Shown in pieces: positions 2,666 to 27,402 of a stretch of DNA of 64,000 nucleotides. The notes under the pieces were generated by a model. That model saw nothing but the letters and a program-made list of their open reading frames with translations, was not told where the DNA came from and made no database searches. The position numbers and the translations under genes were made by a program. Numbering within the stretch: the stretch's first letter is position 1; each line of letters starts with the position of its first letter. The stretch is from Escherichia coli (lineage in GTDB: Bacteria; Pseudomonadota; Gammaproteobacteria; Enterobacterales; Enterobacteriaceae), in assembly GCF_017348835.2 (NCBI RefSeq), contig NZ_CP071375.1, one strand, 5' to 3'.

Positions 2666-3922
2666 ATGCTCCATCCGCGAGCCAGAACCATGTTGTTATT
2701 ATCGCTCCCCGCCGTGGCAATTGGGATTGCGTCCAGTCTTATTCTGATTGTGGTGATGAAAATCGCCTCGGCATTACAGAATTTGCTCTGGCAACGACTG
2801 CCGGGAACTCTGGGGATAGCCCAGGATTCACCTCTCTGGATCATCGGTGTATTAACGTTAACGGGTATTGCAGTGGGGTTGGTTATCCGTTTCAGCCAGG
2901 GTCATGCCGGACCAGACCCCGCCTGTGAACCGCTGATCGGCGCACCGGTTCCGCCCTCTGCGCTACCAGGACTTATCGTAGCATTAATTCTCGGTCTTGC
3001 TGGCGGCGTCAGCCTGGGGCCGGAACATCCGATCATGACCGTCAATATCGCCCTTGCGGTTGCCATTGGCGCTCGTCTGTTACCGCGCGTCAACCGAATG
3101 GAGTGGACTATTTTAGCCTCTGCCGGAACCATCGGCGCGCTGTTTGGTACACCTGTTGCGGCGGCGTTGATATTTTCGCAAACCTTAAATGGCAGTAGTG
3201 AAGTTCCGCTATGGGATCGTCTTTTTGCGCCGTTAATGGCGGCAGCAGCTGGTGCACTTACTACCGGATTATTTTTCCATCCCCATTTTTCACTGCCCAT
3301 TGCGCATTACGGACAGATGGAAATGACCGATATTCTCAGCGGTGCAATTGTCGCGGCGATTGCCATCGCAGCAGGGATGGTCGCCGTATGGTGCTTACCA
3401 CGGTTGCACGCGATGATGCATCAAATGAAAAATCCGGTGCTCGTGCTGGGTATTGGCGGATTTATTCTCGGTATTCTGGGGGTTATTGGTGGACCAGTTT
3501 CGCTGTTTAAAGGACTGGATGAGATGCAGCAGATGGTGGCAAATCAGGCTTTCAGCACCAGCGATTACTTTTTACTGGCGGTGATTAAACTTACCGCCCT
3601 GGTCGTTGCTGCCGCCAGTGGCTTTCGCGGTGGACGAATTTTCCCGGCAGTGTTCGTCGGCGTGGCATTAGGGTTGATGCTGCATGAGCACGTCCCCGCC
3701 GTTCCAGCGGCAATAACCGTTTCCTGCGCTATTCTCGGCATCGTGCTGGTGGTAACACGCGATGGCTGGTTAAGTCTTTTTATGGCGGCAGTCGTTGTAC
3801 CCAATACCACATTGCTACCGCTGCTCTGTATCGTCATGCTTCCGGCATGGCTGTTATTAGCAGGTAAGCCGATGATGATGGTCAATCGTCCGAAGCAACA
3901 GCCACCCCACGATAACGTTTAA
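2666..3922 (+). CDS. yfeO: ClC-family putative ion-transport membrane protein
   Basis: 418-aa polytopic hydrophobic ORF; conserved position between glk and ypeC. Confidence 0.8.
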
Positions 3923-19955: not shown

Positions 19956-20927
19956 ATGAGTAAGATTTTTGAAGATAACTCGCTGACTATCGGTCACACG
20001 CCGCTGGTTCGCCTGAATCGCATCGGTAACGGACGCATTCTGGCGAAGGTGGAATCTCGTAACCCCAGCTTCAGCGTTAAGTGCCGTATCGGTGCCAACA
20101 TGATTTGGGATGCCGAAAAGCGCGGCGTGCTGAAACCAGGCGTTGAACTGGTTGAACCGACCAGCGGTAATACCGGGATTGCACTGGCCTATGTAGCTGC
20201 CGCTCGCGGTTACAAACTCACCCTGACCATGCCAGAAACCATGAGTATTGAACGCCGCAAGCTGCTGAAAGCGTTAGGTGCAAACCTGGTGCTGACCGAA
20301 GGTGCTAAAGGCATGAAAGGCGCAATCCAAAAAGCAGAAGAAATTGTCGCCAGCAATCCAGAGAAATACCTGCTGCTGCAACAATTCAGCAATCCGGCAA
20401 ACCCTGAAATTCACGAAAAAACCACCGGTCCGGAGATCTGGGAAGATACCGACGGTCAGGTTGATGTATTTATTGCTGGCGTTGGGACTGGCGGTACGCT
20501 GACCGGCGTCAGCCGCTACATTAAAGGCACCAAAGGCAAGACCGATCTTATCTCTGTCGCCGTTGAGCCAACCGATTCTCCAGTTATCGCCCAGGCGCTG
20601 GCAGGTGAAGAGATTAAACCTGGCCCGCATAAAATTCAGGGTATTGGCGCTGGTTTTATCCCGGCTAACCTCGATCTCAAGCTGATCGATAAAGTCATTG
20701 GCATTACCAATGAAGAAGCCATTTCTACCGCGCGTCGTCTGATGGAAGAAGAAGGTATTCTTGCAGGTATCTCTTCTGGAGCAGCTGTTGCTGCGGCGTT
20801 GAAACTACAAGAAGATGAAAGCTTTACCAACAAGAATATTGTGGTTATTCTACCGTCATCGGGTGAGCGTTATTTAAGCACCGCATTGTTTGCCGATCTC
20901 TTCACTGAGAAAGAACTGCAACAGTAA
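19956..20927 (+). CDS. cysK: cysteine synthase A (O-acetylserine sulfhydrylase A)
   Basis: 323-aa [27 protein letters not shown]... with PLP-lysine motif (SVKCRIG) and glycine-rich loop. Confidence 0.95.
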
Positions 20928-23380: not shown

Positions 23381-23890
23381 ATGGGTTTGTTCGATAAACT
23401 GAAATCTCTGGTTTCCGACGACAAGAAGGATACCGGAACTATTGAGATCATTGCTCCGCTCTCTGGCGAGATCGTCAATATCGAAGACGTGCCGGATGTC
23501 GTTTTTGCGGAAAAAATCGTTGGTGATGGTATTGCTATCAAACCAACGGGTAACAAAATGGTCGCGCCTGTAGACGGTACCATTGGTAAAATCTTTGAAA
23601 CCAACCACGCATTCTCTATCGAATCTGATAGCGGCGTTGAACTGTTCGTCCACTTCGGTATCGACACCGTTGAACTGAAAGGCGAAGGCTTCAAGCGTAT
23701 TGCTGAAGAAGGTCAGCGCGTGAAAGTTGGCGATACTGTCATTGAATTTGATCTGCCGCTGCTGGAAGAGAAAGCCAAGTCTACCCTGACTCCGGTTGTT
23801 ATCTCCAACATGGACGAAATCAAAGAACTGATCAAACTGTCCGGTAGCGTAACCGTGGGTGAAACCCCGGTTATCCGCATCAAGAAGTAA
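23381..23890 (+). CDS. crr: PTS glucose-specific EIIA component
   Basis: 169-aa [42 protein letters not shown]... Confidence 0.97.
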
Positions 23891-23904
23891 TTCTTGCCGC
23901 AGTG

Positions 23905-23933
23905 AAAAATGGCGCCCATCGGCGCCATTTTTT
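23905..23933. terminator. bidirectional rho-independent terminator (crr / pdxK)
   Basis: aaaaaTGGCGCCcatcGGCGCCAttttttt. Confidence 0.8.
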
Positions 23934-24784
23934 TATGCTTCCGCCAGCGGCGGCAAAATCAATTCATCGCTCTCATGCTGCTGGGTGTAGCGCATCACTT
24001 CCAGTACGCGCAACCCCGCTCGGTGCACTGCATCGGTTAACGCCTTCCCTTTCAGCAAACCACTGATAAGCTGAGCACAAAACAGGTCGCCAGTCCCTTT
24101 CAGGTCGGTTTTTACCCGTGAATGGGAAATGACATTCACGCTGTCGGCAGTGACCACCACCACCTGCATCTCCTGATTTTCTTCATTACCGGAGGCGCTG
24201 GTAATCACCACCCATTTTAATGTGTCTGAAAGCAGACTTTTTGCGGCAGCAATGGCACTGTCGAGATCGCGGCAATTTTTACCGGTCAGGATTTCCAGCT
24301 CAAAGATATTGGGGGTAATTCCCTGCGCTAGTGGCAGTAAATATTGTCGATACGCCTCGGGAAGGTCAGGTTTGACATAAATTCCGCTATCAATATCGCC
24401 AATCACCGGATCGACCATGATCAATAGGTCAGGATGGTCTTTGCGTAGCGCAGTCAGCCACTCGGCAAGGATTTTGATTTGCGATGCCGTTCCCATATAG
24501 CCCGTGGTTACAGCTCGAAGTTGGCGCAGCGCATCACGCTCCTGAAGCGCACGCAAATAGCCGCTAAACCATTCGTCCGGAATCGCACCACCGTAGAAAG
24601 TGTCATAATGCGGCGTATTGCTCAGCAATACCGTCGGCACGGCAAAGACATTCAGACCGTTCTGTTTGATAGCAGGCACCGCAATGCTGTTGCCTACGCT
24701 GCCGTACACTACCTGCGACTGCACGGCGACGATATCCGCCTGCAGTGCCCTGCTCTTATCGTTAAACAACAACAAACTACTCAT
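23933..24784 (-). CDS. pdxK: pyridoxal/pyridoxine/pyridoxamine kinase
   Basis: 283-aa ORF; PfkB-family ribokinase-like fold motifs (DPVIGD, GTGD). Confidence 0.9.
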
Positions 24785-24797
24785 TTAATTTTTTCTC

Positions 24798-24863
<66 letters not shown>

Positions 24864-24888
24864 CACAAAACAAGGATAAGGTAATTCA

Positions 24889-25257
24889 ATGAAGAAAATC
24901 ATTTGTCTGGTCATTACACTACTAATGACACTCCCCGCTTACGCGAAGTTAACTGCCCATGAAGAAGCCCGCATCAACGCCATGCTGGAGGGATTAGCAC
25001 AGAAAAAGGATTTGATATTTGTGCGCAACGGTGATGAACATACCTGCGATGAAGCGGTTTCTCATCTGCGTCTGAAGCTCGGCAATACCCGTAACCGCAT
25101 TAACACTGCCGAGCAGTTTATTGATAAGGTTGCTTCGTCATCATCGATTACCGGGAAGCCGTATATCGTGAAGATGCCCGGTAAGAGCGATGAGAATGCA
25201 CAGCCTTTTTTACATGCGTTAATTGCGCAGACGGATAAAACGGTGCCTGCGCAATAA
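24889..25257 (+). CDS. yfeK: secreted DUF5329-family small protein
   Basis: 122-aa ORF with signal peptide [19 protein letters not shown]. Confidence 0.75.
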
Positions 25258-25259
25258 TC

Positions 25260-26171
25260 TTAAATCCCCGCCCCCTGACTAAAATGCTCTTCCCCAAACA
25301 CCCCGGTGGAAAGGTAGCGATCGCCACGATCGCAGATGATCGCTACCACCACCGCACCAGGGTTAGCTTTTGCCACCCGCAGTGCTCCAGCAACCGCGCC
25401 GCCGGAGCTGACGCCACAGAATATTCCTTCCCGCACTGCCAGTTCGCGCATGGTGTTTTCCGCATCGCGCTGATGAATATCCAGCACCTCATCCATCAGC
25501 GAAGCGTTGAAAATCCCCGGCAGATATTCCGCAGGCCAGCGGCGAATGCCGGGAATGCTGCTGCCCTCTTCCGGTTGCAGGCCGACAATGGTCACCGGTT
25601 TGGATTGTTCGCGCATAAAGCGTGACACGCCGGTGATAGTGCCGGTTGTTCCCATGCTGGAGACAAAATGGGTAATGCGCCCGCCAGTTTGCTGCCAGAT
25701 TTCCGGCCCGGTAGTGGTGTAATGGGCGTAAGGGTTATCGGGATTATTGAACTGATCGAGCAGCTTTCCTTCACCACGATTCGCCATCTCCAGCGCCAGA
25801 TCGCGCGCACCTTCCATGCCCTGCTCTTTGGTGACAAGAATCAGTTCCGCACCATAAGCACGCATCGCCGCACGGCGTTCCTGGCTCATGTTGTCGGGCA
25901 TCAGCAATTTCATGCGATAGCCTTTAAGCGCGGCAATCATTGCCAGCGCAATGCCGGTGTTACCACTGGTGGCTTCGATTAACACATCACCCGGTTTAAT
26001 TTCCCCGCGCTTTTCCGCCTCGACGATCATCGAAAGCGCCGCACGATCTTTTACCGAACCTGCCGGGTTATTGCCTTCCAGTTTCAACCACACTTCACTG
26101 CCGTTATTCGGCCCCATTCGCTGCAACTTCACCAGAGGTGTATTGCCAATTGTTTGTTCTAATGTACTCAC
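25260..26171 (-). CDS. cysM: cysteine synthase B (O-acetylserine sulfhydrylase B)
   Basis: ORF 25260..26249 trimmed to GTG start giving (M)STLEQTIGNTPLVKLQRMG...; PLP-lysine motif SVKDR. Confidence 0.9.
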   Translation of the reverse strand: MSTLEQTIGNTPLVKLQRMGPNNGSEVWLKLEGNNPAGSVKDRAALSMIVEAEKRGEIKPGDVLIEATSGNTGIALAMIAALKGYRMKLLMPDNMSQERRAAMRAYGAELILVTKEQGMEGARDLALEMANRGEGKLLDQFNNPDNPYAHYTTTGPEIWQQTGGRITHFVSSMGTTGTITGVSRFMREQSKPVTIVGLQPEEGSSIPGIRRWPAEYLPGIFNASLMDEVLDIHQRDAENTMRELAVREGIFCGVSSGGAVAGALRVAKANPGAVVVAIICDRGDRYLSTGVFGEEHFSQGAGI

Positions 26172-26194
26172 GATCTCTATCCATACGTGGTGTT

Positions 26195-26245
26195 GCCTGA
26201 TGCGACGCTTGCGCGTCTTATCAGGCCTACAGGTTACAAACCTTG
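26195..26245. repeat. REP element
   Basis: gcctgatgcgacgcttgcgcgtcttatcaggcctac palindromic unit between cysM and cysA. Confidence 0.75.
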
Positions 26246-26304
26246 CCATTAAAAAGCCCGGATCGCGGGAAGCGCCTCCGGGCGTTTAACATTCACTCAA
26301 CCTA

Positions 26305-27402
26305 TCAGGCGCTTTGTGCGAGAGCAAGTTCCTCATCTCGGGTTTCGATACGCTCGTCGCCGTTATACAGCCGCGCATGTTGCAGACCAACGAATAAACG
26401 CTCGCCACGCTGCGGGGCATCGTCGCCATGCATCACGACCGTCAGCGGTTCGTTGTACCACCCCAGCGGCTGCACCACTAATTGGGTGTAGTGACCTTTC
26501 GGGCTGGCTTCCAGTACCTGTACCGGCAGCGGCGAATCGAGGCTGGTACGGCGGCTGATATCCACTTCCCAAGGGCGCAGGAAGAGATCCACCGGCCCCT
26601 GATATGCAGGTGTGTAGCCCAGCGGCCAGCGATGCGCGCCAACATGGAACTGCCCGCCGCGAATGGTTCCCTGCAGGCGGTTCACTTCGCCCATAAATTC
26701 GAGCACAAAACGGGTCGCCGGTTCGCGCCATACCTGATCCGGCGCGTCAGCCTGTTCAATATTGCCCTGGCTCATCACAACTACACGATCAGCTACTTCG
26801 GTCGCTTCTTCCTGATCGTGGGTCACAAAAACGCTGGTGAATTTTAGTTCTTCATGGAGTTGACGCAGCCAGCGACGCAGCTCTTTACGCACCTGCGCAT
26901 CCAGCGCGCCAAACGGTTCATCAAGCAGCAGAATTTGCGGTTCCACAGCCAGCGCGCGCGCCAGCGCCACGCGCTGTTTCTGGCCGCCGGAAAGCTGCGC
27001 CGGATAACGATCCGCCAGATGGGCAAGCTGGACCATTTCCAGCAATTTTGTCACTTTCGCTTTGATGGCTGCGGCATTCGGGCGCTCGCGACGCGGCAGC
27101 ACCGTCAGGCCAAAAGCGATATTGTCGAACACCGTCATATGGCGGAACAGCGCGTAATGCTGGAACACGAAACCGACTTTACGATCACGTGCGTGCAGGC
27201 GGCTCACGTCGGTGCCGTGGAAGCGAATATGCCCGCTGGTTTGATGCTCCAGCCCGGCGATAATGCGCAGCAGCGTGGTTTTCCCGGAACCGGACGGCCC
27301 CAGCAACGCGACCATCTGACCTGAAGGAATATCCAGTGAGATATCGTTCAGCACCTGGGTGCGACCAAAAGACTTCTTAATATTGGCAATCTCAATGCTC
27401 AT
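26305..27402 (-). CDS. cysA: sulfate/thiosulfate ABC transporter ATP-binding subunit
   Basis: 365-aa ORF with Walker [13 protein letters not shown] signature LSGGQKQR, Walker B LLLDEP. Confidence 0.95.

Follow-up and report, generated by a model that had tools for sequence, protein, structure and literature searches.

The yfeK-cysM junction of a non-K-12 Escherichia coli carries the yfeS-free allele of an accessory-gene polymorphism, with yfeS likely to be a horizontal acquisition

The closest described relative of the locus reported here is that of E. coli K-12, in which MG1655 (NC_000913.3) carries the genes pdxK-yfeK-yfeS-cysM (b2418-b2421), with yfeS (b2420, annotated as ‘PF05406 family protein YfeS’) lying between yfeK (b2419) and cysM (b2421) as the initial annotation had it; the layout in J53, a derivative of K-12, is identical. 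yfeK/yfeKS has been described as an operon of the sigma-E regulon (PMC2685091, PMC11502571, PMC3326320), and boric acid sensitivity has been reported for the Keio yfeS deletion mutant (PMC11502571). The K-12 yfeS gene is 735 nt long and its predicted 244 amino acid product contains a WGR domain (Pfam, E = 6e-18). The window studied here (the whole 64-kb stretch of E. coli DNA that was analysed) has ptsI, crr, pdxK, yfeK, cysM and cysA in the same order and orientation as MG1655, the neighbourhood reading ptsI-crr-pdxK(-)-yfeK(+)-cysM(-)-cysA-cysW-cysU, but it does not have the K-12-type yfeKS operon with yfeS between yfeK and cysM, and tblastn found no YfeS-like coding sequence anywhere in the 64 kb.

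In the window yfeK and cysM are convergent and their stop codons, at 25255-25257 on the plus strand and 25260-25262 on the minus strand, are only 2 bp apart, as had been noted initially and as is borne out by the sequence, the list of open reading frames and the RefSeq/PGAP annotation of strain PE164 (yfeK 3090-3458 and cysM 3461-4372 in L002, with the identical 2-bp gap). The junction reads ...GTGCCTGCGCAA TAA tc TTA AATCCCC..., where TTA is the cysM stop (TAA on the reverse strand). As the gene arrangement is fixed, chance is not at issue for the 2-bp abutment. The features around the junction are as follows.

24828..24855, plus strand: putative sigma-E-type promoter-like sequence (GAAACTT, 16-nt spacer, TCAAA), read from the sequence
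24889..25257, plus strand: yfeK, 122 amino acids, signal-peptide-like N-terminus, DUF5329 (open reading frame; Pfam PF17263; PGAP annotation of PE164)
25222..25255, no strand assigned: inverted repeat ATTGCGCAG(AC)...(GC)CTGCGCAAT in the last yfeK codons (predicted folds of both strands)
25258..25259, no strand assigned: 2-bp spacer ‘tc’ between the stop codons, the point at which K-12 has its block of yfeS and REP pair
25260..26171, minus strand: cysM, cysteine synthase B, 303 amino acids, last gene of the cysPUWAM operon (open reading frame; PGAP annotation of PE164; tblastn)

YfeK scored 109.4 bits against PF17263 (DUF5329; cutoff 27, E = 1.1e-31, residues 24-115) and is thus a member of that family. 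The mechanically called cysM reading frame (25260-26249, 329 amino acids) runs 26 codons beyond the annotated start at 26171, with which RefSeq agrees, and a paralogue 41% identical to CysM, presumably CysK, is encoded at 19986-20897, its position upstream of ptsHI-crr being that expected in E. coli.

Alignment with K-12 across pdxK-yfeK-cysM placed the yfeS block at exactly the junction seen in the window. DNA identity to MG1655 is ~99% to the left of the junction (31 mismatches in 3,455 bp) and ~98.4% to the right of it (32 in 2,039 bp), and between these K-12 carries a 967-bp segment (L001:3453-4419, the ~960-bp block) that the window is without, the two stops being 955 bp apart in K-12 compared to 2 bp in the window. 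This segment takes the place of positions 25250-25257/59 of the window (‘CAATAATC’), and the breakpoints, marked here by slashes, are ...GTGCCTGCG/CAATAATC/TTAAAT... in the window and ...GTGCCTGCG/GAAGGAAATTAATCC...yfeS...REP pair...GCTATTAATCC/TTAAAT... in K-12. The two alleles thereby encode differing YfeK tails, TDKTVPAQ-stop in the window and TDKTVPAEGN-stop in K-12, where GAAGGAAATTAATCC replaces the end of ...PAQ-stop by the three-codon alternative ...PAEGN-stop. The 188-bp spacer within the K-12 block holds a REP pair/BIME with a strong predicted fold (z = -5.0), and it matches 11-56 places in every genome.

We refer to the arrangement in the window, in which ...GTGCCTGCGCAATAAtcTTAAATCCCC... 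is contiguous and a 122 amino acid YfeK ends in PAQ, as the empty allele. Among 5,426 complete E. coli genomes, the 901-bp yfeK-cysM stretch was contiguous in 4,039 and the 84-nt junction in 4,035 (in 30 records listed at even steps of the ranking, full-length matches spanned 84 nt in all but one, which spanned 85 nt), and 1,381 carried 80% or more of the yfeS block. The empty and yfeS classes together number 5,420 genomes, a total compatible with mutual exclusion of the two. The yfeS-free state is thus that of the majority (~74% of complete E. coli genomes) and K-12 belongs to a minority type (~25%), making the laboratory reference the atypical strain at yfeK/cysM. The locus is an ordinary presence/absence polymorphism of an accessory gene and, given that only about this quarter of complete genomes carry yfeS, its being ‘missing’ should not be taken as a deletion or an error of assembly. 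The empty junction was identical in all of the E. coli haplotypes sampled (L002, L019, L020 and L021). In one of these, the O157 strain 180-PT54, yfeK (L020:190-557) is annotated as a frameshifted pseudogene, the frameshift being due to the loss of 1 nt compared to the window. Among genomes of the K-12 type, E. coli LR-03 (H31; NZ_AP027474.1, 1336375-1338117) has yfeS interrupted by an insertion of IS1A; inactivation of yfeS is evidently tolerated there, apparently with no obvious consequence.

The composition of yfeS is foreign to its surroundings, with a GC content of 35-42% compared to 52-60% in the flanks. Its product has homologues of at least 89% identity at the same site in enterobacteria (L005 and L026), and beyond the enterobacteria identity is at most 58% (Paenibacillus, Dysgonomonas, Lysinibacillus and Clostridium, of the Firmicutes and Bacteroidota); the gene context of the one such homologue inspected for it (P0009) is unrelated. 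A metagenome-assembled genome (MAG) of Pseudocitrobacter (L005) has the yfeS block delimited as in K-12. Its yfeS DNA is 93-100% identical to that of K-12 in 60-nt intervals lying wholly inside the gene (85% in the last one), compared to 58-92% in most 60-nt intervals of yfeK and cysM (97% in two intervals of cysM), and this far greater likeness of yfeS than of its flanks indicates lateral exchange. Within E. coli the yfeS blocks differ from one another by 3-5% (L001, L022 and L023). A 1,132-bp metagenomic enterobacterial contig (L030, Logan SRR33112897) encodes a YfeS of 65% identity to the K-12 protein, flanked by yfeK and cysM; the insert has boundaries unlike those of K-12 and is without the REP pair. 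Occupancy of this site by yfeS is therefore old.

Other genes are found at the same point in other species. E. albertii NBRC 107761 (L009:4331-6149) has a different AT-rich insert of 1.8 kb with two minus-strand reading frames (280 and 175 amino acids), behind a YfeK ending in ...TVELKNK-stop; the only Pfam match to these frames was a sub-threshold one to DKNYY, in the smaller. Klebsiella spallanzanii (L007:4398-4805) and Superficieibacter electus (L012:4473-4895) have a gene for a SnoaL-like/DUF4440 protein of 135-140 amino acids between yfeK and cysM, with a stop codon that overlaps the cysM stop, giving another tight convergent junction. PADLOC models gave no match for YfeS, for the two E. 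albertii reading frames or for YfeK, and the idea that yfeS or the alternative cargo so searched is a known anti-phage defence gene was rejected on this ground.

One might see in the yfeS block a small non-autonomous mobile element, or a cassette integrating site-specifically at the yfeK/cysM junction, with the window as an unoccupied target. The insert boundaries shared by E. coli and the Pseudocitrobacter MAG would fit this, as would the different cargo at the same point in E. albertii, K. spallanzanii and S. electus, and the 8-bp direct repeat ATTAATCC which bounds the K-12 block (L001 3460-3467 and 4412-4419) looks like a target-site duplication. Collapsing these repeats predicts a pre-insertion junction ...GCGGAAGGAAATTAATCCTTAAAT..., but this was found in none of the 5,426 E. 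coli genomes, where the best full-length match was 91.7% identical with a gap of 6-7 nt, and the empty site that is found is unlike it. Moreover, the block holds only yfeS and the REP pair, with no transposase, integrase or terminal inverted repeats found; the L030 homologue has other boundaries and does not have the REP pair; and YfeS is without a PADLOC match. A search of plasmids gave no exact copy of yfeS, only one 70%-identical relative, distant homologues (~40% or less) and WGR-only matches, and a search of phages gave no exact copies, with distant matches in Listeria phage records only. We thus regard a mobile element as very improbable. The 70%-identical relative (L024:3501-4202) is on the 50-kb non-mobilizable E. 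coli plasmid pZ0117EC0005-3 (NZ_CP098226.1) and is unannotated in the PLSDB gene table.

The absence of the predicted collapsed junction means that the present empty and occupied alleles are not related by one clean insertion or excision, and the proposal that the empty allele is the precise excision product of the K-12 block was rejected for this reason. A broader form of loss has yfeK-yfeS-cysM as the ancestral order, with yfeS deleted in the lineage of the window or in the ancestor of the yfeS-free E. coli and the 2-bp junction left as a scar. The ATTAATCC repeats at the ends of the block could mediate such a loss, and yfeS is old at the site, as seen from the 65%-identical copy in L030 and the copy with identical boundaries in the Pseudocitrobacter MAG. 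However, loss mediated by the repeats predicts the very junction that no E. coli genome carries, and that kilobase contains eight 8-nt repeats, among them ATTAATCC, which may be there by chance. The foreign base composition of yfeS and the distance of its closest non-enterobacterial relatives also speak against its being ancestral at the site.

Further evidence on the direction of change came from outgroups, which were collected by a YfeK scan of one genome per GTDB species (this gave 16 loci, Salmonella and E. fergusonii not being recovered) and typed by tblastn and reading of the junctions. A divergent Escherichia lineage (L004) has the empty junction with the same sequence as the window. 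Pseudocitrobacter faecalis DSM 27453 (L006) has yfeK and cysM abutting tail to tail across 2 bp as in the window, its junction GTGCCTGCGCAATAAacTTAAATCC being one base off that of the window, even though its flanking genes share only ~82-88% DNA identity with the window and its flanks are 12-20% diverged (pdxK is farther, at 66% amino acid identity). Both alleles are thus found in more than one genus. In six further enterobacterial loci (L003, L008, L011, L013, L014 and L015) yfeK and cysM overlap by 12 nt or are 1-99 bp apart: the overlap is that of Escherichia sp. E1V33, the gap is 1 bp in UBA5654, and gaps of 31-99 bp are seen in Citrobacter amalonaticus, a Superficieibacter sp., Intestinirhabdus and Entomohabitans. 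One junction is therefore common to all of the ~4,035 empty E. coli genomes and recurs with a single base changed in P. faecalis, and as the flanks there are so diverged, a deletion would need to predate the split of the genera; we consider it unlikely that yfeS was lost in this way.

Taken together, the empty junctions of L004 and P. faecalis, the tight gaps in the outgroups, the foreign GC content of yfeS and the distance of its homologues favour the empty allele as the ancestral one for Escherichia, and it is likely that yfeS is horizontally acquired cargo that was later exchanged between strains and genera by recombination. The event was most likely an insertion and not a deletion, and recombination is probably the route by which it spread. 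As L030 shows the occupied state to be old too, the distribution may alternatively reflect an ancestral polymorphism or repeated losses of yfeS. On the reading of an ancestral empty allele, the window carries the ‘empty’ allele of an old polymorphism, with yfeK a single-gene unit behind a candidate sigma-E-type promoter, and in K-12, as in some 25% of E. coli, the ~960-bp AT-rich block at the junction makes yfeK part of the yfeKS operon. yfeS would first have entered the site in some enterobacterial lineage, probably another one with a differing yfeK tail, as horizontal cargo, and would later have been passed among strains and genera by homologous recombination, acting either via the conserved flanks or inside the cassette.

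Local patterns of divergence bear on this route. Mismatches between the window and K-12 peak at 7-11 per 200 bp over 25000-25800 (3.5-5.5%), compared to 0-2 per 200 bp (0-1%) in ptsI, crr and cysA, and against L023 they reach 16 per 200 bp (8%) around the 3’ end of yfeK and the 3’ half of cysM, with 0-4% in ptsI, crr and cysA against both L022 and L023. Over 24800-25700, identity to the window reaches 99% or more in only 6 of the 5,426 genomes. The yfeS-positive strain EC-1639 and the yfeS-negative strain ECOCN22 have flanks that are 97.8% and 99.8% identical, placing both alleles on the same flank haplotype, and at the 3’ end of cysM the window is 99.2% identical to the yfeS-positive strain EC0026B. 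The peak of mismatches at the junction fits swapping of alleles by homologous recombination at a locus of locally high diversity.

The empty allele may also affect transcription at the junction. yfeK is monocistronic in this allele, and GAAACTT-N16-TCAAA at 24828-24855 is its putative sigma-E promoter, as judged from the motif itself; a sigma-70 scan found nothing in the region upstream of yfeK. The inverted repeat at 25222-25255 could form a hairpin in either transcript and is not followed by a U-tract; the stability of its fold was not significant against shuffled sequence (z = -1.65 and -1.04 for the two strands), and only the empty allele has its 3’ arm, K-12 reading CTGCGGAAGG there. A terminator scan found none at the junction, its sole terminator-like site (25105-25117) being at a frequency expected by chance, and an intrinsic terminator between yfeK and cysM was rejected as no GC-rich hairpin with a U-tract is present at the junction. 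Rfam searches in E-value mode over 23800-26400 likewise found no RNA family at the junction, giving only one partial REP/naRNA4 match (26194-26226) and one chance match to mir-23. Given that there is no intergenic terminator, transcription of yfeK and of cysM probably continues into the 3’ end of the other gene, and the layout makes such convergent read-through plausible.

A more far-reaching proposal is that single-gene cargo has landed repeatedly at the junction across the Enterobacteriaceae, with both alleles long-lived cross-genus polymorphisms and with sigma-E-driven yfeK transcription running antisense into cysM. The cargo would then comprise yfeS in E. coli and Pseudocitrobacter, the SnoaL-like gene in K. 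spallanzanii and S. electus, and the two-frame block in E. albertii, and the three- to five-fold rise of nucleotide diversity around the junction agrees with it. If true, antisense reading into cysM in strains with the empty allele could tie envelope stress to cysteine synthesis. We think it quite unlikely that this proposal holds, and take from the locus a more modest wider point, that where convergent genes end between conserved flanks, differing small cargo genes can be accommodated and exchanged by recombination among related genera.

Comparison with known elements and strains further places the window. The REP/BIME elements of E. coli are represented in K-12 by the REP pair that ends the yfeS block, whereas the yfeK/cysM junction of the window is without any REP element; a REP-like element is instead found in its cysA-cysM spacer at 26192-26227, where Rfam gave a partial naRNA4 match (26194-26226, 37.9 bits) below the gathering score. 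The initial annotation had taken the absence of yfeS to suggest a non-K-12 background, and this is supported by the mismatches against K-12 and by identity to two other strains: the pig isolates PE164 (NZ_CP114128.1) and F2_81 (NZ_CP043542.1) are 100% identical to the window over 13000-37999, with no difference detected, while all remaining genomes are at most 99.0% identical over these 25 kb. The absence of yfeS by itself excludes K-12-like strains and otherwise tells little of the background; it is on the wider sequence match that the window is a non-K-12 E. coli, agreeing with the pig isolates PE164 and F2_81.
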